Shown: positions 941 through 34,490 of the stretch, piece after piece
Layout: every line of letters starts with the position of its first letter
Position numbering within the stretch: the stretch's first letter is position 1
Source: Ginglymostoma cirratum
Taxonomy: Eukaryota
DNA length: 64,000 nucleotides
Assembly: GCA_024137785.1 (NCBI GenBank)
Contig: JAHRHZ010000250.1
Span: 1,408,515 to 1,472,514, forward strand
Reading direction: 5' to 3'
The notes under the pieces: model-generated
What the model saw: the letters and a program-made list of their open reading frames with translations, nothing else
Told to the model about the DNA's origin: nothing
Databases searched by the model: none
Program-made: the position numbers and the translations under genes

Positions 941-1163
941 GATAAAATTGGATTGCAAGCGGCTCGTTCGGAATTGTTCACGAATCCACTCGACATTGAG
1001 AAAAAATAGAAGACTTAAATGGTAGAATCCTAGCGATTCGTGAAATGTTCAGGTATTTACTACGGCGCAGTATCTTTCGAAATAAAAGCATTGATACAAC
1101 TATAAAGAGAATAATTAATGCTGCGGGTACATGCTGAAATAAAGGTAATGTTTGACTCTGGAA

Positions 1164-3632
1164 ATGAGATATAAAATATTTTGGCTTCTGAAATGCCAAT
1201 TCTTGTACTGCATATTCTTTTCTTGGAACCTAGTGTTTGGACAGATTCGCTACTCAATTCCTGAAGAACTGCAACTCGGCGCCTTTGTTGGGAATATCGC
1301 TGAGGATCTCAGCTTAGATGTAAAGCAGCTCTCGGCTCGCAATTTACGAATAGTAGCCGGGTCCAAAACACAACATGTGGATATAAATTTGGACATTGGC
1401 ATTTTAATGGTGACGAAAACAATTGACAGAGAGGTGATTTGCGGACCGAGCCTTAGTTGTGTGCTGAGCTTCAACGTTTTCCTTGAAAACCCTTTAAAGC
1501 TGTACCAGGTTGCAGTGAAGATTCTCGACGTAAATGACAATGCTCCTAGTTTCCCAAATACACAATTCCGCCTAGAAATCTCAGAGCTTTCTGTTCCTGG
1601 AACGCGCTTTCCACTCGAGCCCGCGCACGATCTGGACGTTGGAACCAACTCCGTGCAAACCTATGAGCTCCTTCCGAACGATTATTTTATTCTCGATGTA
1701 CAGATGCGCAGTGGTAATGTAAAATCCCCGGTATTAGTGCTGCAGAGTCCTTTGGATAGAGAAGCAGAAACCAGCCACAAATTAACGTTGATAGCCAAGG
1801 ACGGCGGAGTGCCCATGAGATCGGGCATGGTTCAGATCTCGATAATTGTAAATGATGCAAACGACAATGCTCCCGTCTTCTCCCAGTCAGTTTACAGAGT
1901 CAGTCTGTTAGAGAATGTAGCCACAGGAACGCAGGTAATCATATTAAATGCCACTGACTTGGACGATGGTCCCAATGGAGAGATAAGCTACTCATTTGGT
2001 AGTCATACTTCAGCTACAGTTCGCGAACTATTTGGCGTGGATTCTCAGACCGGTGAAATCAGAGTGAAACGTAGATTGGATTATGAAGAAAACATTGTCT
2101 TTGAGTTAAACATTCAGGCTACAGACGGAGGTTCTGACGCTATGTCGGGGCACTGTGATGTTTTGGTAAATATTATTGATGTGAATGATAACCCACCTGA
2201 GGTGACTTTGACGTCTTTATCGACCACAATTTCCGAAAATGTAGCAAGTGGGACTGTAGTCGCTCTGTTCGCTGCGGCAGATAAAGATTCGGGCCCAAAC
2301 GGGCAGGTACAATGTCAAGTTTCAAATAAATTGCCATTTAAGCTGAATTCTTCTTTAAAGAATTATTATGGAATACTTGTTCATCATCCACTGGATCGTG
2401 AAAATACCTCCAAGTATGACGTTACAATAACATGTTCGGATGCAGGAAATCCTCCACTTACATCTGAGAAAAGCATTCGGGTGGAGGTATCCGATGTAAA
2501 TGACAACGCGCCGCAGTTCAGTCAGTCTGTGTTTACAGCAAGCATAATGGAGAATAATGATATTGGCGCTTCTATATTTTCTGCTACAGCCTTTGATCCC
2601 GATGTTGGACTGAACGCAAAACTGAAATACGTTATTCTGGAGACTCAAATTCAGAACGCCTCGGTACTCGATTACATCTCTATTAACCCGGACACTGGTG
2701 TCATATTCGCTCAAAGATCTTTTGACTATGAGCAACTGAAAAACTTTCAGATTCAAGCTCAGGTCGTGGACTTTGGGACGCCATCACTCGCAAGTAATGT
2801 TTCAGTGGATGTGATTATCCTGGATCAAAATGACAATATTCCAGTCATCGTGCAGCCATTAGCCGAATTTGGGTCAACAGCAGTTGATACGATATCCAGG
2901 TTTGCAGAACCAGGCTATTTGGTTGCCAAGGTATCCGCCACTGACGCTGACGCCGGTCAGAACGCACGCCTTTCTTATTCCATTTTTAAAGCTACCCAAC
3001 ATAACCTTTTCACTATTTCGCCAGACACTGGGGAAATTTGGACAATCCGTCGTTTCGTTACTAAAGATGCCTCTCAGCAAAGGTTGGTCATTCTGGTAAA
3101 AGATAATGGATCGCCATCTCTTTCTGCTTCAGTGACCATTATCTTAACTGTAATAGGTGATGACGCTGACACATTTTCCACCGTCAGTGGTTCATCTGAA
3201 GACCTCGGGTTTAGTCCTGATCTGAGCCTTCCCTTGGTCATCGCATTAGGAAGCGTTTCTGCCATTTTACTCGTGATTTTAATCATTCTCGCTGTGAAGG
3301 TTCATAAAAGCAGGAATGCACAGAGTGGTCAGCACTGTTCCCTGGGAGTTTGTTGCTGCCTTGAAACCGGCCATTCACTGAATGGAATTCAAAAAGCCAG
3401 TAGAAACCTTCAGATTCCTTCAAATTACGTTGAGGTATTCGGTGGTGACCCACTTTCTCAGAGTTTCCGTTATGAGTCATGTTCAACATTGCAGTCAACA
3501 AGGAGAGACTTCATCATCCCCAACAGATACAAGTCACCCACGGACAAAACGTGCGCCCAGAATGATCATGTTGGGAAACAAGGTTCAGAGTTGCTGCATA
3601 CTGAGATGTTCAGCAACACTTTGAACAATAAG
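1164..3632 (+). CDS. Clustered protocadherin variable exon V1 (signal peptide, EC1-EC6, TM, variable cytoplasmic domain; 823 codons), spliced to constant exons
   Basis: ORF 1152..3704 with first ATG at 1164. QIRYSIPEE N-terminus, EC1 C-X5-C (CGPSLSC), repeated DRE/DYE, AxDxG and DxNDNxP motifs, hydrophobic TM, phase-0 donor AAG|GTGAGA at 3632/3633. Confidence 0.95.
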
Positions 3633-3679
3633 GTGAGACCATTCGAAAATGGGAATAAGCTCCTTGCCGCTTTAATTTT

Positions 3680-4290
3680 TCTTTTATTCTTTGAAGCAAT
3701 GTGAGCATCACTGTTTGGCCAACACTTTTGTATGGTCCCAGTTGCCCTGAAGAAGGTGGTTTCTAGGTTCCTTCTCGAACTGATATCTTCCATGTGACAT
3801 TGGTACTTTCAGACTGCATTTAGGAAGGGAATGGCATGACGACTCTACTACAGTTTTGAAACCTTGTTATACAACTATGTCAGGACAGTCTATGCCTTGT
3901 CCAGTTGTTTTTTTGTGTGTGTCTATTATTCTTGCCCTTGTAGGTGCTGTTAGTCATGTGTTTGCAATGAATATCACAGAAGCCTTGGTGTGTTGCTGCA
4001 GTGTATTTTGCAGATGATGCACACTACTGCCACTGTGCATTGACGGTAGAGGCAGTAGATATTGAAGACATTACGTGGTGTTCCAGTTAAACAGCCTGCT
4101 TGTTTCTGCTTGGCATTGAGTATCTTAATTGTTGTTGGCTATGCATACCTCCAGGTAAATGGTGCTCATTCCATCACACTCCGAATCTGTACTTTAAAAA
4201 TTCCGAACTGGTCTGAGGAGTCAAGTGGTGAAATACTTATCAAGAATCATTGGTTCTGATCTTCACTTGTAGTCACCATACTTGTCTAAT
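3680..4290 (-). mobile_element. Decayed 3' fragment of an L2/CR1-group LINE
   Basis: Colinear similarity with the copies at 4722-5300 and 12418-13092, including the shared 3' tail. Confidence 0.6.
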
Positions 4291-4319
4291 TGTCGTTGTC
4301 ACTTCACTCAGTTGGCATG

Positions 4320-4515
4320 ATAGCAGGTTGTTAATTCAAGGTAACGTCAACAGGCATTCCACACCTGCATTTGTGAGGTTACCATGGATGGAATCTCCTT
4401 ATTAATCTCTCAGTCACCTGAGGTGTGGTGATCTTTAGATTAAACTGTGGCCACTCATCCCTACCATTTGAGAGAGCAGTTCTGAGGATCAGTAGCACTA
4501 TGGCAACTTTATTCT
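4320..4515 (+). mobile_element. Decayed SINE (same family as 59453-59662)
   Basis: Shares cctga-tgt-gtgatc-ttag-ttaa-ctg ... ctatgg-ac blocks with 59453-59662. Confidence 0.45.
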
Positions 4516-4721
4516 TCACCATTTCAATTTCTGGCCGATTGGTAAAAAACAAGAGTTTGATGCTTGGATGCGTAAAACTTTGGGTAAATGTATCATTCCA
4601 ACACTGAGAATAAGACTGTTTATTTAATACAGAAACATACATATTTAGTTTCCTGCGTAATAAACATTTTTTCTCAAAATTCCCAATTTACTTCTATGTG
4701 GTGGTGTCTCCAGGAGTTGTT

Positions 4722-5300
4722 TATTTTTATTCACTCCTGGGACATGAGTGTCACTGGCTGGGCAGCATTTATTGCCCCTCCGTGTTGCCCTTCCGAGGGT
4801 GCTAGCAAGCTGCCCCCTTGAACCACTGCAGCCCATTTGATGTAGGTTGACCCATAATGCCGTTATGGAAATATTCCAGGATCTTGATCCAGCGATTGCA
4901 ATATCTTTTTCCAAACCAGGATGATGAGTGGCTTGGAGAGGAACTTTTCGGTGGTGTTGTTCCCATGTATCTGCTGTCCTTATATTTCTACATGGAATAG
5001 ATCACGGATTTCGAACATCTTGTCTGGGATCTTTAGTGAATTTCTGCAGAGCATATTATCGAGAGTGCACACTACTGCTGCTGAGCATTGATGGTGGAAG
5101 GAGTAGATACTTGTGGATATGGTGCCAATAAAGTGGACTGCTTTGTCCTGTACGGTGTCAAGATTTTTGAATGTTGTTAGGGTAGCAACCATCCAGGTAA
5201 GTGTGGAATAGTCTGTGACACTCCTGAATCGGGCCATGTAGATGGTGGGCAGGCTTTGGGGAGTCACGGAGTGAATTATTTCCTAGTGTCTAACCTACCC
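4722..5300 (-). mobile_element. L2/CR1-group LINE 3' fragment (ORF2 C-terminal remnant)
   Basis: Minus ORF 4980..5267 (TIYMARFRSVTDYSTLTWMVATLTTFKNLDTVQDKAVHFIG...SFHHQCSAAVVCTL) resembles the post-RT region of LINE ORF2 (YKxxVRSxMEYxxxxW...LDxIQxKAxRLI). Its tail is shared with the SINE at 56650. Confidence 0.75.
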
Positions 5301-5329
5301 TTTTTACAATCTACAATTTAAAATTACCT

Positions 5330-5846
5330 TGTTATAAAAAGGATATTATTAAGTTAGAGAGGATTCAACTGATATTTACAAGGATGTTGCCAGGAATGAA
5401 GAGTATGGGCTATTAGGAGAAACTGGATCAGCGGGGCCCTTTTTCCACAGGATATTGACAGGATGTTGACAGTGACATTTCAGAGGCTTATAAAATGATG
5501 AAGGGTCTAGATAAGGTGAATAGAAGTTGTATTTTCACGAGGGTGGGAGTTTTAAAGGATGGGTGCTGATTTTTAAGATGTGTGGGAAAAGATTTTAAAA
5601 ATTTATTAGGGGTCTTTTTTAACACAGAGAGTGGTTCATGTGTGAAATGGAATTCCAGAGGAAGTGCTGAATGCGGGTACAGTTACAATGTTTGAAAGGC
5701 ATTTAAATAAGTGCACGAATAAGGCATGTTTGGGGGTATATGGGTCTTAAGTAGGCAGGTGGACCTATTTTAGTTTGGTATTATGGTCGGCATGGAATGG
5801 TTGGAGTGAAGGGTCTGTTTCAGTGCTGTATGACTCTTTGACTCTA
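5330..5846 (+). mobile_element. CR1-type (HER1-like) LINE 3' end
   Basis: Typical CR1 3' ORF2/UTR (tttacaaggatgttgccagga ... acacagagagtggtt ... gaagggtctgtttcagtgctgtatgactct) ending in a (tgactct)n-like tail. Paralogous to 35550-35938. Confidence 0.75.
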
Positions 5847-5959
5847 CTGTGATTAAATGTAATTCCAGTACGTTGTGAAGTCGTGTTTAGCAATTTCTCT
5901 ATCGTCCATATCATTTTAGGATTCTTTTTAAATTCATAGTCTTTTATCTATAAGCATTG

Positions 5960-6240
5960 AAATTGTGGACACTACAAAGAACAGCAGCAAGCCATTTGAT
6001 CCACCATGACTGTATCAACACATAAGGCCTTGCTAAACTAAAAAGAAAGTTTGCCTCTACGTGGATTGTATCCTACTGTACTCTGCCGACTCTTATATCT
6101 GTCAAGATGCTTCTTAAACTTTGCTGTTGTATCCACCTCTACCACCTTAACTGATAGCGCAGCCCAGGCACTTACCATCCATTGTGTGGAAAGCCTGTTT
6201 CTCACATCTCCTTTGAACTTACTCCGCTTCCTTAAACCTA
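5960..6240 (-). mobile_element. CR1-type LINE 3' fragment
   Basis: Minus ORF 6038..6313 contains FKGDVRNRLSTQWMVSAWAAL..KVVEVDTTAKFKKHLDRY, the characteristic CR1 ORF2 C-terminus. Confidence 0.7.
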
Positions 6241-6376
6241 CGTTCCCTAGTAATTTACATTTGTACTGTGGAGAACAAACTCTGACTATCCATTCTCTCC
6301 CTGCCTCAACCATTACTTACACTCTCTAACCATTTGTATTGTAACTGTGGCAAAGACATCTCGGCTTAGATGTATC

Positions 6377-6593
6377 AGAGATAATAGGTACTGCAGATGC
6401 TGGAGAATCCGAGATAACAAGGTATGCACCTGGATGAACACTGCAGGCCAAGCAGCATCATAGGAGCAGGAAAGTTTGACGTTTCGTGCCTAGACCCTTC
6501 CTCAGAAATTTTTCCTCAGAAACGTCAAGCTTTCCTGCTCCTGTGATACTGCTTGGCCTGCTGTGTTCATCCAGCTCCACACCTTGTTATCTT
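6377..6593. mobile_element. Palindromic (hairpin) Penelope-like-derived element with 14-bp flanking direct repeat
   Basis: Inverted arms gagataacaagg...aggaaagtttgacgtttc / gaaacgtcaagctttcct...ccttgttatct. GGCTTAGATGTATC occurs at 6363-6376 and 6594-6607. Hammerhead-like core on minus at 6478-6508. Confidence 0.75.
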
Positions 6594-7174
6594 GGCTTAG
6601 ATGTATCCACACAAGTACAGAGTGTGGCCTTTGACAGCAGGATTGCAGTCCCAAAAAGAGTCTATAAAGTAGTTATGTAAAGACTGGATTTGGAATAGAT
6701 CCAAACAAATAAGATTTGAACTTGCTGAGGGCTCTGACAGAAATTCCTATCCCTGCCATTGTTTCCAGAAAAAGAAGTCAAGCAAAATCAATGCATCATC
6801 TTGATAGTTTTGGAAATGCCCTATACATACAAATACATTATCTTGCGTCTGTATAAATGCAATCGCAAGCTTACATTGAAGCAATTAATGGTTCATGCAT
6901 TAGTTTAAGTCATTTCTTCAAAACATTGTCGTTTATTATAGCATGCCGTAAACAGTAAATCCCACTATTGCATGCATGGTGAGCATTAGTATGAATTGAG
7001 AGGTTACATCGTGTATTTTCATATTGGTTAGAGTACAAACTCGACCAGGCCTGTTTTCTCACCCCGTACACAACCCCTACACTTTCTCTACTGCCATCTA
7101 TTCCCCAGCCCGTCAAGAATACAAAACCAGTCATAATGCACCTTGCAGTTGACACTGAAATTATATTTAAATAA

Positions 7175-7392
7175 TATCAAAATGCGTGAGAGCAACTTAG
7201 GAGATCTAGTTGCAGCTGAGGAGAGAGAAAAGCAGAGTTCATGCTTTGAGTCCAATGTGACTCTCTGTTGAACGCTCCACAAAAACTTAAAACATTAATT
7301 CTGTTTCTGTCTCTGAAGATTTTCTGAAGTTTTCCAATATATTTTGCTTTTAATTCAGATCTCCAGCAACCACAATATTTTACCTTTTATTC
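7175..7392. repeat. Degenerate palindromic Penelope-like-derived repeat
   Basis: Decayed inverted arms of the same type as 50505-50740 and 62355-62480. Confidence 0.45.
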
Positions 7393-7707
7393 CATGGTAA
7401 AAACACTTCTCAGACTTTTCTTAACTTCAAGTGATCCTGTTCGTGTGTCATAGAATGTTGCTACTGTAGACGAGTAAGTAATAAGTATTAAATGTTCACA
7501 AGTTGATGGTTAATTTCAGTTAGGCATATTTAAATGCTGAAGCACAAGAAAATCACTGGCTACCATAATAAGTAGGGTCTAAAGAAATGTGCTTAGTAGA
7601 AGGAGGAGGTAATACTGATCTGGTTATTCACTACGGAACATCTCACAAGTAACATTTTAGGAAAGGGAACGAAAGTTATGACTGAAATAAAAGGATCTTA
7701 ATTTTAA

Positions 7708-7880
7708 TTGCACAACCATAAATGTTAACTAAAACGATCTGCCAAGTCATTCCAGCTTTAAGAAGTCGTCTGTACGGTGATTGGTTGAACGTGGAGCTCC
7801 CTACTGACCAATCAGAAACTGAAATGTAAGTGGAGATCTTGACTGCCCCCTTGTCTGCTCATACACAATCAGATACAGTG
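7708..7880 (+). promoter_or_regulatory. Promoter module of V2
   Basis: TTGCACAACCATAAAT (7708), CATTCCAGCTTTAAGAA (7748), TGATTGGTTGAA (7778), ACCAATCAGAA (7807), GGAGATCTTGACTGCCCCCTT (7832). Confidence 0.8.
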
Positions 7881-8113
7881 GAGAATGGAATGGCGAGCTA
7901 CGGAGCATTTGTGAGGTTTGTGCGGTTATTGAGATTTTTCAGGAAAAAGGGAATGTTTGCCTGGAAGAATATCAGTGAAGTGGAAAAATTGAACGTATTT
8001 TATGCACTGCAGCGTCGCTTCTCCAAGAAAATGATACATGAAGACCTCGATTTTAAACACCGAATTAACAGCAGCGTACAGCACTGAAGCAATTGGAATG
8101 CTTTGTACTGGCG

Positions 8114-10579
8114 ATGGGATGTTATCAAATATCTTGGTGGTTAACTTGGCAACTGGTGTGTTGTCTATCTCTATTCTGGGCTATGGTTTCTGGACAGATT
8201 CGTTATTCGATTCCCGAGGAGCTACAACCAGGCGCCTTTGTTGGAAATATTGCAGATGATCTCGGAATACGTGCAAAGCAGCTCACGGCTCGCAATTTTC
8301 GTGTTGTGTCTGGTCCCCGGAAGCAGTATTTGGAGGTAAACTTAAACGATGGGAATTTGTTTGTGAAAGAAAAAATTGACAGGGAACAGCTCTGTCGATC
8401 AGGCCTCACTTGCACGTTGTCTTTGGAGGCGGTGATCGAGAATCCCTTGACTGTGTATCACCTTGAAGTGGAGATTCTTGATGTAAACGACAATGCTCCC
8501 AGTTTTCCGAGCAGCCAGTTTCGCCTTAAAATCTCTGAGCTTGCCGCACCGGGAGCGCGCTTTGCCCTGGAGTACGCGCGCGATCCGGACGTTGGAACTA
8601 ATACCCTGCAAACGTACCAGCTAGTTGCTAACGAATATTTCGTATTGAATGTTGATTCGCGAGGAGGGGACGGAAAGTTGCCAGTGTTAGTGCTGGAACG
8701 GGCCTTGGACAGAGAAATACAATCGACCCATCGGTTAGAATTAATTGCCAAGGACGGCGGGGTTCCTCCCAAATCAGGTACTGCTGAAATTATAATTGTC
8801 GTGCAGGATGAGAATGACAACGCACCCACCTTCCCAAACTCAGTTTACAAAATTAATCTGTTAGAAAACTCACCTAAAGGAAAGTTGGTTATTAAACTGA
8901 ATGCTACTGATAAAGATGATGGTTCCAATGGAGAGATATTGTACTCGTTCAGCAGTCATACCTCTGTCAGAGTCCGTGAGCTGTTCGGTGTGGATTCTAA
9001 AACTGGTGAAATCAGAGTTAAAGGGACTTTGGACTATGAAAAAGACAACGCCTTTGAGATTAACATGCAGGCGCTGGACCAGGGAACTAATCCAAATCCC
9101 GGGTACTGCCACATTCTTGTTAACATTATGGATGTGAATGATAACGCACCTGAGGTGACTCTAACTTCGTTGTTCAGTCCTATTAAGGAAGACTCCAAAC
9201 CCGGGACCGTGGTTGCTCTGATCAGTGTATCCGACAAAGATTCAGGAAAGAATGGACGGGTAAGCTGTGAAATAGCAAATAACCTACCATTCAGATTAGA
9301 TTCATCATTAAAGAACTATTACAGGTTGCTGAGTCATCAGCTGCTAGATCGAGAAAATGTCTCGACGTATGACATTAGTATTCGTTGCAGTGATTCAGGA
9401 TCTCCTCCTCTGACATCCAGGAAAACGATTCGCGTGGAAGTCTCGGATACAAACGACAATGCGCCACGCTTTACGCAGACTTTGTACACAGCCCAGGTGA
9501 TGGAGAACAATGCTATTGGGACTTCAATCTTCGCAGTAACAGCTCTTGATCCAGATTTGAACCAAAATGCCCGATTAATCTACTCTATCCTCGACAGCCA
9601 GGTTCAGAACGAGCCGGTGTACACTTATTTGAGTATCAATTCCAAAAATGGGGTGATTTATTCTCAGAGAACTTTTGATTACGAGCAACTGAGAAACTTT
9701 CAGGTTCAAATCCAGGCACGGGACTCTGGAGAGCCACCACTCACCAGCAATACTTCCGTGGATATAATTATTCTGGACCAGAATGACCACGCCCCAGTGA
9801 TCATTCACCCTTCCATGGAGTACGGTTCAACAGCATTGGAGACAGTGTCAAAGTTCGCAGAGCCAGGCTACCTGATCACTAAGGTAACAGCCACGGATGC
9901 TGACTCGGGCCAGAATGCTCGACTGTCTTATCAGATTCTTCAGTGTACTGATCCTGGACTTTTCACTATCTCACTTGATACAGGAGAAATTTGGGCAGTC
10001 CGTGGCTTCACGGGCAGAGATGCAAAGAAACAAACGATAGTCGTGACCGTCAGCGACAATGGAACACCAATGCTCTCTGCCACAATGACTCTTATCTTGT
10101 CAGTGGTGGAGGGCGATGCAGGAATGCTCTCTGATATAAGCAATTTATCTGAAGATTCTGGTTTGTCTAATCACACGAGTTTTTACATAGTTATATTTTT
10201 AGGGAGTATTTCGGCCATTTTCCTACTTGTTTTAATTGCACTTGCAATTGTAGTCCATAAAACCAGAAATGGGTTCGGTGGCCCTCACTGTGCCCTAGAT
10301 TTGTGTTGCTGCTTCCGAGCAAGGAACTCGTTGAATGGGATTCAAAAAGCCAGCAGAAATATTCAGATACCTCCGAACTACATTGAAGTATTTCGGGAAG
10401 ATCCACTGTCTCAGAGTTTCCGCTATGGAACCTGCACGACTTCAGATTTGACCAAAGGAAAGTTCTTGTACTCCAACCAGTGTAGTTCATCCACTGGCAA
10501 GAATAATATCAGCAAGGAATCAATTTGGGGTCAAGAAAAACTACAAGCATCACTTTCTAATTGTAGGAACATTAGTGAG
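8114..10579 (+). CDS. Clustered protocadherin variable exon V2 (822 codons)
   Basis: ORF 8093..10594, ATG 8114. Six cadherin repeats, TM, conserved cytoplasmic motif, phase-0 donor GAG|GTGAGC at 10579/10580. Confidence 0.95.
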
Positions 10580-11589
10580 GTGAGCCAGTTGTAATGCAAC
10601 CTTACTGGTTATGTCTGAACCCACGAATTTCTACTGTAAAACACACTGAAATGTTTTGTTTGGTACGTCTGAGTTGCAGAGATATCTGAACTTTTTTCTT
10701 GTTAGTTCCTGCACATTACATGCAAAGCAAACTCCAACCTCTGAATGGTACTTAGGAGAGTGCTTCCAAATGCAGAAAGGTGAAATTATTTGTAACACTT
10801 AGTGCGGTTTACCCATTGCCTTAGCTCCCATTAATTGTCATGGTGCACTGTACCAAGTCATTGTATGCACACAATACAGGTGTGCTATCATCAAAGATCT
10901 GCCATTAGAAAGATGTATGCTGAGCTCAGTGACAAAGCAACTAATGAACTGTACTGCAGCCTAGTTCAGAAGGATACATATACTTTTGGTAACCGCATCT
11001 ACAGTTATGAAGTCCAGCTCAGTGTCCATAAGTGGAAGATATCTTTTCTTGGTGCAAAAAACAAAATGATAATGTACAAAATAAAACTGCTGAACAACCT
11101 ACTAATCAAATCTATATATCTCTACGGAATCTTATATCCCCACGGTAAAATGTATCACATTTTATATTCAGAATAATATAACAGAAATTTAATTAATTTT
11201 CAAGGGTGTTGGGTGGATTATTTTTCCAAAACATTGTCATTGGAGTGAGAGCATTGCTGGCAAGGTCAGCATTTATTAATCTTCCCTAATTACCTTTGAG
11301 AAGATTGCAGTGATTCTTTCTGATCTATCCAACGCAGTTGTGTACAATTCATTATGGGAAGTATTGGAGCAGAGCAGAGTTTATCAAAAGCGATTTTTTT
11401 TGGACATCAACTGTTTCATATGAAATTGTTAATCAATTTAGAGTGACTTTATTTAAGGATACATATTGTCAGGCAACATAATAGGTTATGGGGGAACCTA
11501 CAATCATAATACACTTAAATTGTTATTCTGGAAATAATTTCAGAAAACAGGACACATCTTCAACGAACATGTTGTAAGAAGGAAGAAAG

Positions 11590-14369: not shown

Positions 14370-14545
14370 TTGTACAACAAAAAATTGAAATTACAACTAT
14401 TTAGGGGAACATTCTAGCTTTAAGAAATGAGTTGTCTTCTGATTGGTTGAACATGAGTCAGCCAATCAGAAGCTAGTAACTTGGTGGTGATCCGGCATGT
14501 CGCTTTCCCTTCCCATCTAGCATCGCACTCGGCCCGAGACAATGT
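14370..14545 (+). promoter_or_regulatory. Promoter module of V3
   Basis: TTGTACAACAAAAAAT (14370), CATTCTAGCTTTAAGAA (14410), TGATTGGTTGAA (14440), GCCAATCAGAA (14461), GGTGATCCGGCATGTCGCTTTCCC. Confidence 0.8.
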
Positions 14546-22284: not shown

Positions 22285-22465
22285 TTGCACAACGCTAAAT
22301 GTCAAAATCACTGAGCTATTTACAGAGACATTCCAGCTTTAAGAAATGTTCCGCATGGTCATTGGTTGAACTCCCATTCACCAATGAAAAGCTGTAATGT
22401 GTCTGGAGATCTTGACTGCCCCCTTCCCTCCCCATCCACCATTACGTGCGATCAGATACAGCGGA
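22285..22465 (+). promoter_or_regulatory. Promoter module of V5
   Basis: TTGCACAACGCTAAAT (22285), CATTCCAGCTTTAAGAA (22329), CATTGGTTGAA (22360), CACCAATGAA (22379), GGAGATCTTGACTGCCCCCTT (22405). Confidence 0.8.
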
Positions 22466-22700
22466 AAACCGGTATAGAGAGCTGCGTAGCTCTACACCGG
22501 GTGTAATATTCATTTATGTTGGCAATTTTACAAAGAAATAAGAGGAACAGATCGACTTCTCAGTGATATGTGAAAAATACAGGTATTTTCATGTAATGTT
22601 ATCCCTTTTTAGCGTTGAAAATCGTTTACACTGAATCTTATTCCAAGGAATCACTGAATGGCGAGACGCGCAGAAGCTTTTGGAATGCATTGTGCGGGAA

Positions 22701-25145
22701 ATGGGATTTTCTGAAATACATTGGCTGTTGAAATGGTCACTTTTTTTCTTTACGTTACCCTCCTGGGTGCTTGTTTCGGGACAGATTCGCTATTCAATTC
22801 CTGAAGAACTGCAACTGGGCGCCTTTGTTGGGAATATCGCAGATGATTTGGGTTTAGACGCGAACGAGCTCAAAACTCGCAATTTTCGGATTGTGTCTGG
22901 GCCCAGGAAGCAGTATCTGGACGTAAATGTGGACAATGGGATATTATTTGTGAAAGAAAAAATTGACAGAGAACAGCTCTGTGGGCCTAACCTGATATGC
23001 ACCTTGTCCTTAGAAGCCGTGATCGGAAATCCTTTAAACGTGTATCATTTCCAAGTGGATATTCTGGATGTGAATGACCACGCTCCCAGTTTCCCAGAAA
23101 GTCAATTCCGATTGGAAATCTCAGAGGTAGCCGTGCAAGGAGCGCGTTTTGCCCTGAAATCGGCTCAGGACCCAGATGTTGGAACTAACGCTTTACAGAC
23201 CTACCTGTTAATCAGTAACGAATATTTCGCACTAGACATCCAGTCGCGCAGTGGAGATGGCAAATTGCCAGTATTAGTATTGCAAAAGCCGCTGGACAGG
23301 GAAAAACAAAAGACACACAGGCTCGTACTAATTGCCAAGGACGGGGGAATCCCTCAAAAATCTGGAACTGCCCAGGTAATTATTATCGTACAAGATGCGA
23401 ACGACAACGCGCCGGTGTTTTCACAATCAGTACATAGGGTGAGACTGCTGGAAAATGCATCTAAAGGCACACTTGTAATCAAACTAAACGCAACCGACTT
23501 GGACGATGGCCCTAATGGAGAAGTTGTATATTCGTTCAGTAGTCACGCCTCTTCCAAAGTCCGCGAACTGTTCAACGTGGATTCCAGAAATGGGGAGATC
23601 AGAATCAAAGGCAACTTGAACTATGAAGAAAATCGTGTTTTTGAGATTAATGTGCAAGCAATGGACAAGGGGCCTTATGCGACGCCTGTGTACTGCGATG
23701 TCCTGGTTAACCTTACTGATGTCAATGATAACTCACCTGAGATAACTTTGACCTCTATGTTCAGTCCTGTTATTGAGAACTCCTTGTCTGGGACGGTGGT
23801 AGCCTTGTTTAGTGTGGAGGACAAAGACTCGGGAGATAATGGACAGGTTCAATGCCAACTTGCAAATGGTTCTCCTTTCAGACTAGATTCGCCTGTGAAG
23901 AATTACTACAGCTTGGTCACTCAGCAGCCACTCGATCGCGAAACAACGTCAGAGTACGACCTTACAATCCTGTGTAGCGACAGAGGAATCCCTCCTCTCG
24001 CAGCCAAGAAATCCATCCGGGTGGAAGTTTTCGATGTTAATGATAACGTTCCACGTTTTACACAACCTTCATACACAGCCTACGTGATGGAGAACAACAT
24101 TATCGGTTCCTCTGTTTTCACTGTGACAGCCTTCGATGCAGACTTAAATCAGAATTCTCGACTCTCCTACTCCATCCTGGAAACTGGGGACCAGGATTTA
24201 CCAATATCCGCCTATGTGCAGATTCATTCAGAAACTGGTGTGATATATTCTCAGACAACATTTGACTACGAACAACTTAAAAACTTTCAGATTCACGTGC
24301 AGGCACAGGACTCTGGAGCTAAGCCGCTGGCCAGCAACGCCTCAGTTCAATTTATTATCCTTGATCAAAATGACAATGCGCCAGTGTTCACACAGCCATC
24401 GCCAGAGTATGACTCGACGGCAGTAGAGACAGTTTCGAGATTTACCGAACCAGGATACCTGGTTGCAAAAGTGTCCGCAACCGACGCGGACTCTGGCCAG
24501 AATGCTCGCCTTGTTTACCAGATTTTTCAGTCTACCGACCCGGGACTTTTTACTATTTCAGCGGACTCGGGGGAAATATGGACAGTTCGTAGTATCCTGA
24601 ACAAGGATCTCAGTGAGCAAAAGTTGGTCATTGTTGCAAAAGACAGTGGAGTCCCGCCACTTACAGCGACAATGACCATCATTATATCAGTGGAACAAAG
24701 TAAAACAGGAATGTTATCCGAGATGGACACTTTACCAGAAGGAGCTGTTTTTGCTTCGGATACAAACTTTTACTTGGTCATAGGTTTGGGGTTACTCTCT
24801 ATCATTTTTCTAGTGATTTTAGTTATCCTCGCCGTTATGGTTTTTAAAAACAGACCTGGTGTTGACCACCAGAGCTCTTCTCGGGGCACCTGTTGTTGCT
24901 TTGAGACAAGTACTCACAAGGCCAGTCGGAGCCTTCAGATTCCTCCGAACTACGTGGAAGTGTTTGGGGGCGACCCACTTTCTCAGAGCTTCCGCTACGA
25001 GACGTGCTCGTCTTCAGATACACTGAAGAGAGACTTCATGTTTCGCAGTATGCGGAGTTCACACGCCGGAAAGGCCGGCCCTGCTGGCAAAGACCCCCCA
25101 CCAAAGTTGAACTCTGCAAACTCTAGAAATACTGTTAATTGTGAG
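22701..25145 (+). CDS. Clustered protocadherin variable exon V5 (815 codons)
   Basis: ORF 22680..25169, ATG 22701. EC1-6, TM, phase-0 donor GAG|GTGAGA at 25145/25146. Confidence 0.95.
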
Positions 25146-25636
25146 GTGAGACACCCGGCTGCTGGGTGAGTGGGAGGTAATGCGTTATTGGCCGGGGCAC
25201 ACGTTAAACTAAGGCTATATTAATGTGGATATGAGGCGATGGGAGACATTATCCCTGGGCTTTCAATCTTCGTCGCTTTCCAAATTTCTCACCATCCTAA
25301 CATCTGCACCTAAATCGACGCCAGATATTTTCCCTCATAATTATTCCGTTATATTTATCGTTGTAATTGTTATCCTGTATTAAACTGTTAATAATTCTTT
25401 GACGCATGGTATAAATAGCAAAGGAATTCATTGTTCTCTACATAAAAAGAACTGCAGTTTTGAGACGCTGAGATTCTTCTTTCCCTCCCTAAACAGGCAA
25501 GACTACGGGTCATATTCTCGAGGTGATGGATCCTTATTTAGTGCTGACGTGGAGAGAAATATAGAGAAATGGGGGAGATGATGGTATTGTGGTATACCTC
25601 TAGTATTCCAGAGGCCGATTGAATTTGAATTCAGGA

Positions 25637-25794
25637 TCTATAGGTATAAGGTTGGAAAAGCACAGCGGGCCAGACAGCATCAGAGGAGCAGGAAAGTAGA
25701 ACTCCCAACAAAGGTTTTCGGACGGAAATATTGACTTTCCTGCTCCTCTGATGCTGTCTGGCCCGCTGTGCTTTTCCAGCCTCACACCTATAGA
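25637..25794. repeat. Near-perfect hairpin element (~60-bp inverted arms), Penelope-like-derived family
   Basis: tctataggt..ggaaaagcacagcgggccagacagcatcagaggagcaggaaagt (25637-25698) is the reverse complement of actttcctgctcctctgatgctgtctggcccgctgtgcttttcc..acctataga (25734-25794). Confidence 0.8.
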
Positions 25795-25904
25795 CTCGGA
25801 ATTTAAATGCAATCCATAAATCTGGAATAAAAGCAAAGGTGACTGAAAATATCATCAATTAGTGTACATATCTTATCCGGTTCACTAATGTACTTTGGCT
25901 AAGG

Positions 25905-26310
25905 AAACGTGCCAGCCTTTTTCAGTCTGGTCTATATGTGACTTCAGATACAGAGCAATGTGATTGACTCTTAAGTGTCCTCTGAAATAGCCTAAGAGCC
26001 CATTTAGTTCAATGGCAATTCGGGATGGGCAACAAATGTTGGCCTTGTCAGCGACGCCCACATCGATGAAAGAGTAAATAAAAACACTCCGAGGATTCTG
26101 AATTCTCTGCCCGAGAGAGATGTGGATGTTCAATCAAGTATATTTAGAAATGAGATGGATTTAAGCGCATAAAATGAGCTATAGTTTCTGGGGAGATGAT
26201 GGAAAAGTAGAATTAATGAAATGTTGAGTCATGTTCTTACTGAAGGAGGGGAAGACGTTGGATGGCCCATGTAGCCTATTTATACTTCTCGTTCTTATGT
26301 TCTTATGTAT
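25905..26310 (+). mobile_element. 3' half of a tRNA-SINE (25905-26082) followed by a CR1 tail fragment
   Basis: Matches the 3' part of 56650-56993 (tgtgacttcaga...caatgtgattgactctt...ggcaattcgggatgggcaacaaatgttggccttgtcagcgacgcccacatc). Ends in a (ttcttatg)n CR1-type tail. Confidence 0.6.
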
Positions 26311-26586
26311 CAATACCTTATGATGGTGAAAGTCAGAGATCGTATTCTAAGTTTTTTTAACCTGCCTAATTGACAGTCTCCATATCTGTGCTTTGCACGA
26401 AGTCATCTATGCATGACATACAGTTAACAAAAAGAAACTGCTGTACAATTTACCTGCAAATAATAACTAGGATCATTAGCCTTGCTGTTATTTTGTTAGA
26501 AAATGTTATTGCATTGCTGAAAAACTCTTTGATAGCGTAAAGGCTAGAGTTAAAAGTTTGTAGGAAAGAAGTGGGAATATTTTTGG

Positions 26587-26770
26587 TTGTGCAACCATAA
26601 ATATTGCTTTTACGCAAAGGTTTGCAAAGACATTCGAGCTTTAAGCGACGCCAAAGGCAATGATTGGTTGATATGAACATGCCTACGTTCACCAATCAGA
26701 AGCTAGAACTTGCCTGGAGATCCCTTTTCCCTCCCCATCCACCATCAATGTAAGATCGGCGACAGTGTAA
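26587..26770 (+). promoter_or_regulatory. Promoter module of V6
   Basis: TTGTGCAACCATAAAT (26587), CATTCGAGCTTTAAGCG (26631), TGATTGGTTGA (26661), CACCAATCAGAA (26690), GGAGATC (26716) followed directly by the pyrimidine tract. Confidence 0.8.
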
Positions 26771-26998
26771 AAATGGACAGCAAGCTGTCGGTTGCTGTAT
26801 TGCGATTTGCACGTATATCTACGGATGATTTTAGAATTAATAAGAACGGTCGTCACAAATGAGACTAGGATGTATAAATAATACAGGTACTTTGCAAATT
26901 ACAGCTCTCGTAAAATTATATATAGGGAAGTTTATTGAGACCAGTTGGCGAACGGAGCTGCGCTGCACTGAAGCATCTGAAATGTTTTGTCGCTGGAA

Positions 26999-29473
26999 AT
27001 GGGATATTATAGAATATACTGGTTGGTAAAATTGCAACTGTTGTACTGTGTATTCCCCTCCTGGATTCTGGTTTCGGGGCAACTTCATTACTCGATTCCT
27101 GAAGAGTTACAGCTGGGTGCCTTTGTTGGAAACATTGCCGAGGATTTGGGTTTAACTGTGGAAGAGCTGTCGCCTCGAAATTTTCGAATTGTGCCCGGCT
27201 CCAACAAAAGGTTTTTCGACGTAAATTTAGACAGTGGGATTTTATTTGTGAAGGAGATAATTGACAGAGAACAACTCTGTGGGTCGAGTCTCATATGCTT
27301 ATTGTCTGTAGAGGCTGTGATCGAAAATCCTCTGAATGTCTATCGAATTGAGGTGGAGATTTTGGATATTAACGATAACGTTCCCCATTTTCCAAAAAAC
27401 GAAATCCGCCTTGAAATGTCTGAACTGGCTGTACCGGGAGCGCGCTTCCCCCTTGAGTGCGCGCACGACCCTGACGTTGGAACCAATTCCCTACAAAGCT
27501 ACCGATTGCTTGGGAGTCGGTACTTCGGTCTGGACATTGAAACCCGCAGTGGGGACGAGAAGCTGCCAGTGCTGGTGCTTGAAAAGGCACTGGATCGAGA
27601 GAAAGACTCAACCCACAGGTTAGAGCTCATTGCCAAGGATGGAGGGATCCCTCCGCGGTCCAGCACTGCTCAAATAATAATCACGGTGCTGGACGCCAAT
27701 GATAACTCTCCTGTGTTCTCCCAGTCGGTTTACAGGGTCAGCCTGAATGAAAATGTGCCAAAAGGAACAGTGGTGATCAAACTGAATGCAACTGATTTGG
27801 ACGATGGTTCTAATGGTGAGATAGAATATTCTTTTACCAGTCATACCTCAGGGACAGTTCGTGAGCTGTTTGATCTGGACTCCAAAACCGGGGAGATCAA
27901 AGTGAAAGGCAATTTGGACTATGAAGAAAATAATGCTTTTGAGATCAATGTTCAGGCAATGGATCGGGGCTCTGCACCACTGCCAGTGTACTGTCACATA
28001 CATGTCGATGTTACCGATGTGAATGATAACTCACCAGAGGTGTTAGTGACTTCTTTGTTCAGTCCAGTTAGTGAAGGCGATGTGCCCGGGACTGTGGTGG
28101 CTCTGATCAGCAGCACCGACAAAGACTCAGGAGAAAATGGACAGGTCCGCTGCCAAATCCCAGATAACATTCCGTTTAAGTTGAATTCTCCTTTAAAGAA
28201 TTATTACAAATTGTTAACGCGGGAGGAACTGGACAGGGAAACCGCCTCTAAGTACGACATCACTGTCCTCTGCAGTGATGCAAGCTCGACCCCACTGTCT
28301 TCCAAGAAAACTTTGCGGGTGGAGGTCACTGACGTAAATGACAATGCTCCACGTTTTAAACAGTCCGTGTACACAGCCTATGTGATGGAGAACAATGTTA
28401 TCGGAGGGTCAATCCTTTCTGTGGCAGCGTCCGACCCGGATGTTAACGAGAACGGTCAAATATCTTACTCTATTCCGAGGAAACAGATTCAGGACGAACC
28501 AGTGACCAACTACGTGCGTATTAATTCAAATAATGGAGTCATACTTTCTCAGATAGCATTCGATTATGAGAAACTTAAAAACTTTCAGTTCCAGGTTCAG
28601 GCACAGGATTCTGGAGTTCCAGCACTCAGCAGCAACGTTTCGGTAGATGTTGTTATCCTTGACCAGAACGACAATGCTCCAGTGATTCTGCACCCACTAC
28701 CTGAGTATGGGTCAACAGCAACAGAGACAATGTCCCGTTGGGCAGAACCAGGATATCTGGTTACCAAGGTATCTGCCATTGATGCAGACTCTGGTCAGAA
28801 CTCTCGCCTATCTTATCAGATTATTCAGACTACTGACCCAGGACTTTTCACGATTTCACCAGATACTGGCGAAATCTGGACAGTCCGTAGAATTGAGGGC
28901 AGAGATTCAATAAAGCAGAGTTTAACAATTATTGTAAAAGACAACGGAACACCACCACTTTCAGCGTCTATGACGATCGGTATATCGGTGGTGGATGGGG
29001 AATCAGAGCTGCTTTCTGATGCCGGAAGTTTAAATGAAGATCCTGGGTTCCCTTCCGATTTGAGTTTTTACTTGGTGATATCCTTAGCATTAATTTCGTC
29101 CATTTTTCTGGTAATTTTAATTTTCCTTGCTGTGAAAGTGCACAAGAACAGAACTCGGCTCGGAGTTTACAGCTGTGCCCTGGACGCCTGCTGCTGTTGT
29201 GAATCAAGACATTCATTGAATGGCATTCAAAGGGCCAGCAGAAACATTCAGATACCTCCAAATTATGTGGAGGTATTTGGTGGCGACCCACTTTCTCAGA
29301 GTTTCCGCTACGAGACATGTTCAACCTTAGTTTCAACTAAGCATGACTCTGCCTTTTCAAAGGTGTGCACTTCATCTCATTTGAAATGTAATGTCAGGAG
29401 TGAATACATTGAGAAGGGAAAAAATCCACACATCTCACCTCCTGAAAAATGTACAAACACTGTAAATAGTGAG
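26999..29473 (+). CDS. Clustered protocadherin variable exon V6 (825 codons)
   Basis: ORF 26987..29506, ATG 26999. EC1-6, TM, phase-0 donor GAG|GTGAGA at 29473/29474. Confidence 0.95.
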
Positions 29474-30064
29474 GTGAGATATTGCTTCAAAAGGGAAAAA
29501 AGATAAACCACAAGTTTGATTTGGTTGCACATAAGTCGATCGGCTGAATGGTCCGCTTCTGCTCCTTCGTCTTGTGGTCTTACATACAATGGAGATTTCC
29601 AACGCATAGCTAACTATTTCTGTGTGGTTCTATGCAGTTGAAGGTGAAGATAAAAAATACAACCCAGTAGCTTACATTATTTCCTTGCATTTTTGGAACA
29701 AGAACTTATATATTTATGGTATATTAAAAACGTCCCTGGAGGTGGTGGAAGAGGTGGGGATAGCTGAGCTTCAGTTATGTCTAATTGATAAGAACTGTTC
29801 AAGATTGTTCCTTCTAATTGAAAAAAATGCACAATGTAGTTGCAATATGTGTCACAGGAAAATAGTGTACAAGGAACAAAATGAACAAGATATACATCTG
29901 AAAGGGAATAAGTTAAAACAAAAATCTACAAAATACTATTATTTAGCAGAACAATTCCAATTGTTGAATACACATTTAATTTGGGTAAAACTGTGAATAT
30001 AAATGTATTTTGTAATATATTTGTTGGAAAGAATGTATCTTAATTAGGCATGGAAAAGTGAAAA

Positions 30065-31390
30065 ATTGCAGATACTGAAAGTCTGATATTTTTAAATCGA
30101 AAATGTTGGGCAAATTCATCAAGTCTGACAACGTCTGTGATGAAAGAAAGTGAGTTAACATGTTTCAGATTTGTGACTGTTCATCAGGCCGGGAAAAGTT
30201 AGAAAGATATTGGGATTTGAGTAAGAAGTAGGTGGGACAAGGACAAACAAAGATCTGCAATAGAATGAATGCCAGGAGAGATATAATAGCCGAAAAACTA
30301 GTCTTCCAGGGCTAAACGGAATGAGGCAAGAAACAAATTATATGTTTTGAGCAGATATATTGTAATTTGTGACAAAAACATGAAGAGAAAACCCAGCACG
30401 GGTAAAGAGAAGAAACAAAATGGGGGCAGAGGTTATTGTGCGACATTAGTTCTTCTTATTCATTCACAGGATATGGGTTTTGCTGGCTGGACCACCTTTT
30501 AGTGTCCATACCTAAATATCCATAGGGCAGTTAAGGGTCAACCACAATGCTGTGGGTCTGGAGTCATATGCAGTTCAGACCAAGTAAGGATGGTAGTTGC
30601 CTTCCCTATAAGATATTAGTGAACCTGATGGATTTTTCCAACAATCAACAATGGACTCATGGTCATCATTAGAGTCTTAATTCCACAATTTCATTGAATT
30701 GAAATTTCACCATCTGCCGTGGCATGATTCGATCCCAGGTCCTCAGAACATTATCTGGCTGTCTGGATTGACAGCCACACGAAGATGTTGCCTCCCCCTA
30801 CTGAAGTCAGCGTTAAAATTGGAGAGGTGTAAAGTGTCTATCAAAAGATAACATAATGTTCCTCACATGTACTTTGCGCCTCATGGAACAGTGATGCAGA
30901 CTGAGGACAGAGATGTCAGTGTAAAAAGAAAGTGCAGGATTAAAATAATAAGCCATTGGAAGCTGAAGATCATGCCTGCAAACGGAACAAAGGTGATCCA
31001 CATAGCAGTAAGGCAATCCGCATCTGACACACCCACCATCCATTCCCTCAGGAAAGAGGAAACAATATTTTGAGCAGAGTACATCCTAAACTAGATTGAG
31101 AGACGTGCGTATAAATTGCTGCTTCAGCTGAATGAAGTAATTGGGGGCTCGGATGTTGAGGAGAGAAGACGTCTAGGTGCCAAACCTGTGATAGCGTGAA
31201 AGGCGCAGTTGAATGGCAAGTTTTTTTGGGGGGGGTACTGAAATCTACTCTTCCCCCAGAGTGTCACAGAGGGAAGAGAATGCCGGAATAGGGTTCTGAA
31301 ATCAATTACCTCAATGTGAAAGGTGGATATCCGTTTGAGAGCATTTTAAAGGGATCAGATGATATGTTTCCAGCATTTTCTGTTTTCCTA
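30065..31390 (-). mobile_element. Decayed Penelope-like retroelement (GIY-YIG endonuclease remnant), interrupted by a SINE
   Basis: Minus ORF 30813..31043 (LPMAYYFNPALSFYTDISVLSLHHCS) resembles the PLE GIY-YIG C-terminus (PVAxHFNxxxHSxxDxxVLGL). The 31040-31150 minus strand resembles F-TC-S-N-VY-I-C. CTGATGA...GAAA core on minus at about 30160-30187. Confidence 0.6.
30455..30800 (-). mobile_element. tRNA-derived SINE with LINE-like tail
   Basis: Full-length reverse-complement match to 56650-56993. Confidence 0.8.
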
Positions 31391-31662
31391 TCACTTATGT
31401 GTAATTTACAGATAAGATAGTCATTATGCATTCACAATATGATAAGTGAAGCTTGTGTATTAAGCATATGCTTCGATCTGTTCCATTCCGGCTTCTGGTA
31501 AAAATAAATCACTTCAACTATTTAGTTCGCGTGCATGGCGACATGCGTTTTGCAGAGAATGTATATAGATGCATTTCCAAATATTCTCCTTTCTTCAGCT
31601 TCTTTTTAGAGTAACTTGACGGAGAAAGTTAGATCACTAAACTAATAGAGCAAGGATTTTCA

Positions 31663-31840
31663 TTGTACAACAATAAATGTTCAACTTCCTGACCTGATAG
31701 CTTTAAGAAATGCTGCGAGTTGTGATTGGTTGAGGACAAATGGGTCTCCATCCACCAATCAGTAGCTGAACGGTGACTGGAGATCCAGACTGCCCCCTTC
31801 CCGTCCCATCAGCCATCACATAGGATCTGACACAGTGTGA
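31663..31840 (+). promoter_or_regulatory. Promoter module of V7
   Basis: TTGTACAACAATAAAT (31663), AGCTTTAAGAA (31699), TGATTGGTTGA (31723), CACCAATCAG (31753), GGAGATCCAGACTGCCCCCTT (31779). Confidence 0.8.
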
Positions 31841-32063
31841 TTTTGGGTAGCGAGTAGCAGGGTATTTTATATTCCCAATCTTTAGTGATTTTAGAATAAT
31901 TGAGAAGAGTTATCAGAAATTGCCTCGGAGAATGTATCTCAATTGCAGGTATTATGGCTCTTTATTTTGGATTTTGAAAAATGATACGTAGTCATTTTAT
32001 TCCAAGGAGTAAAGTGGACAGCGCTGTGACGTGCTGGAAGGATTGAAATGCTTTGTGCTGGAA

Positions 32064-34490
32064 ATGGGATTTTATAAAATATATTGGTTGTTAAGATGGC
32101 AACTATTGTGTTTACTGTTCTGCTGGAACCTGGTTTCTGGACAGATTCGGTATTCCATTCCTGAAGAATTACAGCTGGGCGCGTTTGTTGGGGACATCGC
32201 GGCTGATTTGGGTTTAAATGTAAAACAGTTCTCGACTAGGAATTTTCGGATTGTATCCGGACCCAGGATAGAGTACTTTGGTGTGAATGTAGACAATGGG
32301 ATTTTAGTGGTGCAGGAGAATATTGACCGAGAGCAGCTCTGTGGATCGAGCCTCGGTTGTACTTTGACGCTGGAGGCTGTGATCGACGAGCCACTGAATG
32401 TGTATCACGTCGAGGTGGAAATTCTAGATATAAACGACAACGCTCCCCATTTCCCGAAGGGACAGTTCCGTTTGGAAATATCCGAGTTAGCAGTGCCTGG
32501 AATTCGCTTCCCACTGGAGCCTGCGTACGATCCCGACGTAGGCTCCAACTCCTTGCAAAGCTATCAGTTGGCTCCTAATCAGTATTTTAAGTTGGATGTA
32601 CAATCTCGCAGTGAGGACGTTAAACTCCCAGTTCTGGTGATGGAGCGACCTCTTGATAGAGAACAGCAGCCCACACTGCAGCTAGTGTTGACCGCCACTG
32701 ATGGGGGCATTCCGCAGAGATCTGGCACTGCACAGATTCTCATCCACGCTCTGGATGTCAACGACAATGTACCTACCTTTAGCCAGTCCCTTTATCGTGT
32801 TAGTTTGATGGAAAATGTGCCCATAGGAACGTTGGTGATCAAAGTGAACGCCACTGACCCAGATGAAGGTTCCAATGGAGAAATTGTCTATTCCTTTGGT
32901 AGCCACATTTCTGTTACAGTGCGGGAACTGTTCAGTGTGGATCCCACAACTGGAGAGATTCGCGTGAAAGGACATCTAGATTTTGAATCAGCAAAGCAGT
33001 TAGAGATTAGTGTGCAAGCTGTGGACAAAGGCGCAGGATCTGTACCCGTGCATTGCGATGTGATAGTGGAAGTGGACGATGTGAATGATAATGCGCCTGA
33101 AGTAACGGTGACTTCTTTGTCCAGTTCAGTGCCTGAAGATGCCCTACTGGGGACTGTGCTAGCTTTAATCAGTGTGACTGATTTGGATGTGGGGAAGAAT
33201 GGAAACACACACTGCCGGATCCCAAAGAACCTTCCTTTCGAATTGGATTCAACATTTAAGAACTATTACCGATTGGTCACCAAAGATTTACTAGACCGAG
33301 AAATGGTTTCTCAATATGATATCACCGTTACCTGCTGGGACGAAGGTTCGCCCGTACTCACCTCCAACAAAACCATTCAGCTGAAGATCTCTGATATAAA
33401 CGACAGCCCGCCACGTTTCTCACAGACTTCATACACCACCTATATCACCGAGAACAACGTCATTGGCAGCTCTATCTACTCAGTACCAGCTTTTGATTCG
33501 GATTTAAATCAGAATTCCAGGTTGTCCTATTCTATTTTACAGACACAGGTCGGCCACGACCCTGTTTATAATTATGTCTCCATTAATTCAGACAGCGGTG
33601 TAATATCTGCTGAGCGCTCTTTTGACTATGAAGAATTGAAGAAATTTCAGATCCAGGTCCAAGCTATAGACGCTGGAATTCCTCCACTGAGCAGTAATGT
33701 GGCTGTGTTCGTGGTCATTCTAGACCAAAATGATAATGCCCCAGTCATTATATCCCCAATACAGGAGTATGGGTCGACAGCAGTGGAGACAGTATCTCGA
33801 TCAGCAGAGCCGGGTTACCTGGTGACCAAGGTGTCAGCCACTGATGCGGATTCAGGTCCCAATGCAAGGCTCTCTTATCAACTGGCTCAGGCTACTGACC
33901 CTGGTCTTTTTACCATTGCTGCGGACACAGGAGAGATCTGGACAGTCCGCCGCATTACGGGCCAAGATGCAACTAAACAGCGCTTGGTTGTCCTAGTAAA
34001 AGACGATGGGCTCCCCCCTCTGACTGCCTCCATGAATATCATCTTATCATTGACGGACAGTGAGAGTGAAATTCTTTCTGAAGTCAGTAGCTTAACTGAG
34101 GATGTCAGACTGCCTTCGGACCTAAGCCTATACTTAGTCATAGCTTTAGGGACGATCTCATCCATTTTTCTAATGATTTTGGTTATCTTGGCTGTCAAAG
34201 TCCACCAAAGTAGGAACGTTCTTCACCGTCACAGCTGCTCCCTTGATACGGACTGCTGCTTCGGGTCAACGCATTCTCTCAATGGAATACAAAAAGCCAG
34301 CGTGAACCTTCAGATTCCCCCGAACTATGTTGAAGTGTTTGGCCGTGACCCATTGTCTCAGAACTTTGGTTACGAGGTATGTTCTACATCGGATAAAGAG
34401 ACAAGTGGCAACGTATTTCCCAAAATTCAAATTCTTACTCGATATAGGCAACCGCCTTATTGTGACATGGTCAGGCTTCAAATGTTGTAA
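32064..34490 (+). CDS. Clustered protocadherin variable exon V7 (last before the constant region); ORF stops 26 nt before the paralogous donor
   Basis: ORF 32031..34490, ATG 32064. EC1-6 and TM intact. TAA at 34488-34490. The positional donor GAG|GTAAGG (34516/34517) is out of frame. An in-frame donor GAG|GTATGT lies at 34376/34377. Confidence 0.88.
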   Translation: MGFYKIYWLLRWQLLCLLFCWNLVSGQIRYSIPEELQLGAFVGDIAADLGLNVKQFSTRNFRIVSGPRIEYFGVNVDNGILVVQENIDREQLCGSSLGCTLTLEAVIDEPLNVYHVEVEILDINDNAPHFPKGQFRLEISELAVPGIRFPLEPAYDPDVGSNSLQSYQLAPNQYFKLDVQSRSEDVKLPVLVMERPLDREQQPTLQLVLTATDGGIPQRSGTAQILIHALDVNDNVPTFSQSLYRVSLMENVPIGTLVIKVNATDPDEGSNGEIVYSFGSHISVTVRELFSVDPTTGEIRVKGHLDFESAKQLEISVQAVDKGAGSVPVHCDVIVEVDDVNDNAPEVTVTSLSSSVPEDALLGTVLALISVTDLDVGKNGNTHCRIPKNLPFELDSTFKNYYRLVTKDLLDREMVSQYDITVTCWDEGSPVLTSNKTIQLKISDINDSPPRFSQTSYTTYITENNVIGSSIYSVPAFDSDLNQNSRLSYSILQTQVGHDPVYNYVSINSDSGVISAERSFDYEELKKFQIQVQAIDAGIPPLSSNVAVFVVILDQNDNAPVIISPIQEYGSTAVETVSRSAEPGYLVTKVSATDADSGPNARLSYQLAQATDPGLFTIAADTGEIWTVRRITGQDATKQRLVVLVKDDGLPPLTASMNIILSLTDSESEILSEVSSLTEDVRLPSDLSLYLVIALGTISSIFLMILVILAVKVHQSRNVLHRHSCSLDTDCCFGSTHSLNGIQKASVNLQIPPNYVEVFGRDPLSQNFGYEVCSTSDKETSGNVFPKIQILTRYRQPPYCDMVRLQML

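Follow-up and report, generated by a model that had tools for sequence, protein, structure and literature searches.

The stretch of DNA analysed here (the window, 64,000 nt of contig JAHRHZ010000250.1 from the shark Ginglymostoma cirratum, positions 1,408,515 to 1,472,514 of the forward strand) contains seven variable exons of nu-type clustered protocadherin genes, V1 to V7. They are arranged in tandem, each encodes six cadherin domains, and they precede shared constant exons, two of which lie in the window and more (L051 and L052) outside it (Table 1). Each variable exon is preceded by an out-of-frame ATG that opens an upstream open reading frame (uORF) overlapping the coding sequence. By retranslating the window, we recovered the seven upstream ATGs, main ATGs, spacings, peptides and stop positions as an initial annotation had listed them. 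From V1 to V7, the upstream ATG lies 16, 16, 16, 16, 16, 17 and 16 nt before the main ATG, out of frame in all seven exons, and the overlapping uORFs stop at +11 to +146, that is, 3' of the main start (positions are given relative to the main ATG unless said to be relative to the upstream one). The purine reported at −3 of every upstream ATG is a G in 7/7 exons.

The closest homologs of V1 to V7 are shark, ray and elephant-shark proteins, and those that carry a name are called 'protocadherin nu'. In a search of the same genome, 72 candidates were scored and 56 matches obtained; 43 on the window's contig and six elsewhere were taken. A protein tree built without the broken copies and without L026 and L027 united V1–V7 and L001–L010 with the elephant-shark proteins nu4–nu17 in one clade (FastTree support 0.997). 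This clade numbers at least 17 copies in G. cirratum, 13 intact and four broken (L005, L007, L008 and L009); the gaps between its exons were read in four stretches (7 loci), and no further exon was found in these. The broken exon L007 has a stop at codon 703, within the membrane segment, and also a stop directly after its upstream ATG.

The upstream ATG was found in 16 of the 17 clade copies, including 12 of the 13 intact ones, and it yields an overlapping frame in 11/13 intact genes (36% expected from shuffles). In L010 it is located at −15, in frame, and is followed by a stop after two codons; this is the sole in-frame case, and no intact clade gene has an open in-frame extension from the upstream ATG. 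L004, an intact gene, has lost the −16 ATG; its ATGs at −46, −97 and −151 still give an overlapping frame. We compared these copies with 27 other intact variable exons of the cluster, taking as the main ATG the in-frame ATG that gives a signal of 19–30 residues and setting aside five broken exons, one exon without a match and six non-cluster loci. At −15 to −17, an ATG occurs in a single one of the 27, L013, where it opens an in-frame uORF of two codons. Four of the 27 carry an ATG in the last 40 nt that opens an overlapping frame, below the 25% expected from shuffles. Since 1/27 other exons carry the ATG against 16/17 clade copies, the element is clade-specific; an element of the whole cluster, as initially proposed, is ruled out.

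Two observations were made outside the clade. The in-frame two-codon uORF of L013, which belongs to a sister nu clade, is like that of L010, and its ATG at −15 and the −16 ATG may be homologous. In a second clade, L019, L020 and L021 (G000:C250, ~903–966 kb) all have an out-of-frame overlapping ATG at −25, with C at −3 and a short signal peptide of 19 residues, at about the position where the other exons start. This ATG is like the nu-clade one in kind, but differs from it in clade, in spacing, in its weak −3 C context and in being found in three genes.

Compared with its flanking bases among the paralogs, the upstream ATG ranks first for retention among 216 trimer windows in the 240 nt 5' of the start (16/17, tied with the overlapping AAT), with the −30 and −6 blocks nearly equal. 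The clade leaders are 44–83% identical to each other, and none of 65 fourfold sites is invariant across the 13 genes. In neutral simulations, the probability that at least 12 of 13 tips keep the ancestral ATG was, under a uniform rate, 2.5e-6 on the fourfold tree and 8.5e-5 on the leader tree. When rates followed a gamma distribution, it was 9e-4 to 9e-3. All values are per site and uncorrected for the few ATGs per leader. These results support the view that the upstream ATG has been constrained beyond shared ancestry. An element without function, kept by shared ancestry or by gene conversion starting from a short duplicated copy of the start context, would be in line with the similar contexts of the upstream and main ATGs, with the slow evolution of chondrichthyan genomes and with the ATG retained in broken copies. 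However, the simulations predict the ATG in only 2.6–3.5 of 13 tips, the signal peptide between the ATG and EC1 has diverged, and the register is apparently kept in elephant shark, so that this explanation is already largely refuted and has very little probability left.

The upstream ATG is located in a conserved 30-nt block (Table 1), and the earlier statement that the rest of the 5' untranslated region had diverged proved too strong, as 13–15/17 copies also retain blocks at about −30, −6 and −115. Relative to the upstream ATG, the 13 intact genes have G at −3 in 13/13, a variable −2 (G in seven, A in four, C and T in one each), a −4 split 7/6, A at −1 in 13/13 and a pyrimidine at +4 in 13/13, and the broken copies keep the ATG in 4/4 and the −3 G in 1/4. 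An invariant −3 beside a variable −2 is the pattern that selection on a start context would be expected to leave, whereas it would not explain the invariance of −1 and +4. The CCAAT box of the promoter drifts from −273 to −325, while the upstream ATG stays 15–17 nt from the start, and L013–L015 and L017 have the promoter motifs without the overlap. Because the distance to the promoter varies by ~50 nt and these four exons have the motifs alone, the block appears tied to the start codon and not to the promoter.

A nucleic-acid motif with the ATG as a chance part may also fit these data. The block would then be bound by a factor that recognises DNA or RNA, or would act in general as an enhancer of the start region, the ATG being incidental and any repression a tolerated side effect. 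Such a motif would account for the similar conservation of the three islands, for the −1 A and the +4 pyrimidine, neither expected from start context, and for the ATG in broken copies. It is harder to reconcile with the invariant −3 between variable −2 and −4, with the tie to the start codon, with the same promoter motifs found without the block, and with the lack of conserved RNA structure, no pair being found in 12 sequences. We thus regard it as rather unlikely, although it deserves consideration. These 12 sequences, compared from −70 to +40, gave 0 consensus pairs, so no conserved hairpin was found around the two ATGs.

The uORF peptide is not conserved; its length ranges from 8 to 53 aa, two frames are used, and codons 2–4 vary at first and second positions, which rules out a conserved uORF peptide. 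The sequences of the peptides that the initial annotation had described as similar are correct, but the G-N that they share stems from the context of the main ATG. The block could be coding in the main frame, as a longer signal peptide, living or relic, that starts from a non-ATG codon near −30. Its reading looks protein-like across species, and this frame is open from −30 in 8/13 intact genes, but stops or frameshifts occur in the other 5/13. Moreover, the A of the ATG would be a silent third base in this frame, yet it is present in 13/13 genes; of 25 conserved E/K/Q columns, only two keep their third base unchanged. Such an extension is therefore improbable.

Other cartilaginous fishes were compared through predicted proteins reading into the leader, not through DNA. 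A Cys precedes the start Met by five codons in 6/6 named N-terminally extended shark and ray homologs, in 2/2 unnamed ones, and in 6/8 Met-showing junctions of fused elephant-shark models (two of the six belonging to the same gene); the two misses resemble predicted splice joints, and four more junctions show no Met. This Cys supplies the TG of the upstream ATG, and the codon before it, for E, K, Q or G, permits the A without proving it. These data suggest that the same register is present in rays and in elephant shark; the elephant-shark split dates back ~400 million years.

The upstream ATG appears to be transcribed in V5 and V7, where it lies under RNA-like contigs of run X1, which we guessed to be RNA and whose coverage tracks the exons. 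A single contig (31825–33700), with no gap or mismatch, extends in V7 from −239 through the upstream ATG, and the V5 contig reaches 5' to −41 and covers it as well; the V6 contig piece begins 3' of the upstream ATG, and the starts of V3 and V4 fall outside the listed pieces. In the poly(A) run X8 (~24% read), depth was 4.5 in the bin 31728–32391, which includes the V7 start, and 0 in the preceding bin, and run X9 gave only 5 reads. These data fit a leader of ~240 nt just 3' of the CCAAT pair. An inverted CCAAT pair spaced 20–30 nt, with several more conserved motifs, was observed before each clade exon. Most clade leaders also have a splice-donor-like hexamer between ~−109 and −122 (31946 in V7; core kept in 14/17), but no acceptor matching this motif at ~−115 was seen. 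A leader intron starting there and removing the ATG was rejected, as the V7 contig crosses the motif gap-free and the listed joints include none at this place; a minor splice, or a splice to a constant exon outside the mapped stretch, may still be compatible with this contig.

Table 1. Features of the window (1-based positions; uORF, upstream open reading frame overlapping the main one; ORF, open reading frame).
Feature	Position	Strand	Details
Seven nu-type protocadherin variable exons V1–V7	1164..34490	+	ORFs 808–846 aa; Cadherin_2, Cadherin x5, Cadherin_C_2
V1 overlapping uORF, 8 aa	1148..1174	+	main ATG 1164
V2 overlapping uORF, 53 aa	8098..8259	+	main ATG 8114
V3 overlapping uORF, 39 aa	14768..14887	+	main ATG 14784
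V4 overlapping uORF, 9 aa	18951..18980	+	main ATG 18967
V5 overlapping uORF, 9 aa	22685..22714	+	main ATG 22701; RNA-like contig 22660–23198 spans uORF
V6 overlapping uORF, 15 aa	26982..27029	+	main ATG 26999; spacing 17, other frame
V7 promoter block common to paralogs	31660..31790	+	motifs ~−401, −363, inverted CCAAT pair −339/−309, −284; putative promoter role
V7 leader under one gap-free RNA-like contig	31825..32063	+	at least 239 nt
Conserved 30-nt block before main ATG (V7 shown)	32034..32063	+	islands −30..−26, −19..−13 (contains upstream ATG), −6..−1
V7 overlapping uORF, 9 aa	32048..32077	+	main ATG 32064
Subcluster constant exon 1	41765..41821	+	tblastn with full-length homologs
Constant exon 2	47782..48033	+	

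Taking as its basis the position, frame and overlap of the upstream ATG, the constraint on it and on its −3 G, and its presence in the transcribed V5 and V7 sequences, the reading that we favour, with a probability of about 0.5, is a selected overlapping uORF whose ATG would act as a decoy start and damp translation by leaky scanning. Ribosomes would start at the upstream ATG, terminate 3' of the main ATG and be lost, and the protocadherin would come from ribosomes that pass the upstream ATG by leaky scanning or that prevail when the two close ATGs compete at short range. The decoy would thereby capture most scanning ribosomes and damp each isoform, the uORF peptide itself being presumably irrelevant. 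The purpose might be a low dose per isoform, which is the weakest part of the proposal.

The upstream start context is predicted to be as strong as the main one. In the supplement rows of PMC4299517, mammalian reporter efficiencies range from 79 to 116 for the 12 upstream contexts and from 78 to 108 for the main ones, the upstream value being higher in 8/12, and the constant 0.86, taken from the available part of that source, leads to a rough leak estimate of 0–32%. According to the accessible text of PMC10275272, overlapping uORFs usually have a repressive effect, and leaky scanning gives access to the main ORF; overlapping uORFs were likewise repressive in the zebrafish reporters described in the available portion of PMC11685710.

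Several points weigh against a decoy start. The blocks at −30..−26 and −6..−1, kept in 13–15/17 copies, place the ATG within a wider conserved element, the A directly 5' of it is equally invariant, the overlap from the upstream ATG is lacking in 2/13 intact genes, and the ATG is retained by all broken copies. In other species, seen as protein, the A of the ATG is compatible only. The contigs cannot fix a start site, and run X1 is RNA by guess. Across the 13 genes, the leaders also contain 46 further ATGs (~3.5 per leader), which turn over freely and are mostly not shared, and 21 of which have a purine at −3, so that in a leader of ~240 nt the −16 ATG would not be the first ATG met. Finally, in the zebrafish data of PMC11685710, as far as the available portion goes, G represses at −2, −4 and −5 and A or C is most favourable at −3, and the upstream context may thus be weaker in fish; in yeast, inhibition becomes weaker as two ATGs near each other (accessible part of PMC9743702).

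The position of the stop codons leaves room for a coupling of termination and initiation, in which a short uORF that ends just 3' of the main ATG returns ribosomes to it, metering or even aiding initiation. A homologous stop (+11/+14) in the −16 frame is present in 11/13 intact genes as TAA, TGA or TAG, and the accessible text of PMC10275272 describes viral reinitiation where the two codons are no more than 20 nt apart. Stop and start lie within ~20 nt in 8/11 overlapping uORFs, but not in V2 and V3, which are long, or in V6, which is in the other frame. The stop is formed by pairs of codons in the basic N-terminal part of the signal peptide, which could preserve it passively. As known cases require an upstream structure, and none was found here, such coupling seems improbable.

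Judged from sequence, the upstream ATG is a real, constrained and clade-specific feature, and its role as a throttle is putative. A wider interpretation of the decoy start, which we put forward only tentatively and consider doubtful, would be a promoter-independent translational dose limiter, carried for some 400 million years by the largest protocadherin isoform clade of sharks, with a second clade evolving its own at −25. If this were true, a tunable gate at the level of translation would set self-recognition codes in addition to promoter choice.

Other parts of the locus were also inspected. Constant exon 2 codes for a short-period repeat rich in Q/R/E/D/V/C, and different homologs read the last constant exon (L052) in two different frames. 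Three constant-tail matches, at 46.5 kb, 1105.6 kb and 1495.6 kb of G000:C250, split a cluster of ~1.5 Mb into at least three subclusters.

Work on the output of clustered protocadherins has dealt almost entirely with promoter choice and chromatin looping, and an ancient, paralog-wide upstream start would make translation a second dial on isoform dose. The intact, lost, in-frame and start-stop copies also provide a natural series for gauging the competition of close ATG pairs. Overlapping uORFs are a known and ordinary class of mechanism, but the listings of our literature searches gave no description of such an element for clustered protocadherins, and the accessible parts of PMC4978886 and PMC2926608 deal with promoter and silencer elements only.

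Among known systems, the exons themselves correspond to the elephant-shark protocadherin nu subcluster, with whose named proteins they cluster. The conserved upstream RNA structure of termination upstream ribosome-binding site (TURBS)-type termination-reinitiation was not found (0 consensus pairs, −70 to +40, 12 sequences). ATF4-type delayed reinitiation likewise combines short uORFs further 5' with one overlapping uORF. However, the 5' uORFs of the shark leaders are unconserved, and the 16 nt from decoy to start look too short for the delay. A conserved short first uORF was not found: no leader ATG 5' of the overlapping one is common to more than 7/13 intact genes, and the one shared by 7/13, at −46, mostly opens an overlapping frame itself. 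This partly shared ATG (~−46; L001–L004, L006, V1 and V5) is mostly in the frame of the −16 uORF. As in the closely spaced competing AUGs of PMC9743702, where the accessible data come from synthetic yeast reporters, both ATGs are within competing range. In form, the element resembles overlapping uORFs (oORFs) in general, which likewise have an out-of-frame ATG 5' of the start, a stop 3' of it and an unconserved peptide. The shark element, known here from sequence alone, differs from them in having one fixed short spacing in ~17 paralogs of a promoter-choice cluster, apparently across cartilaginous fishes.

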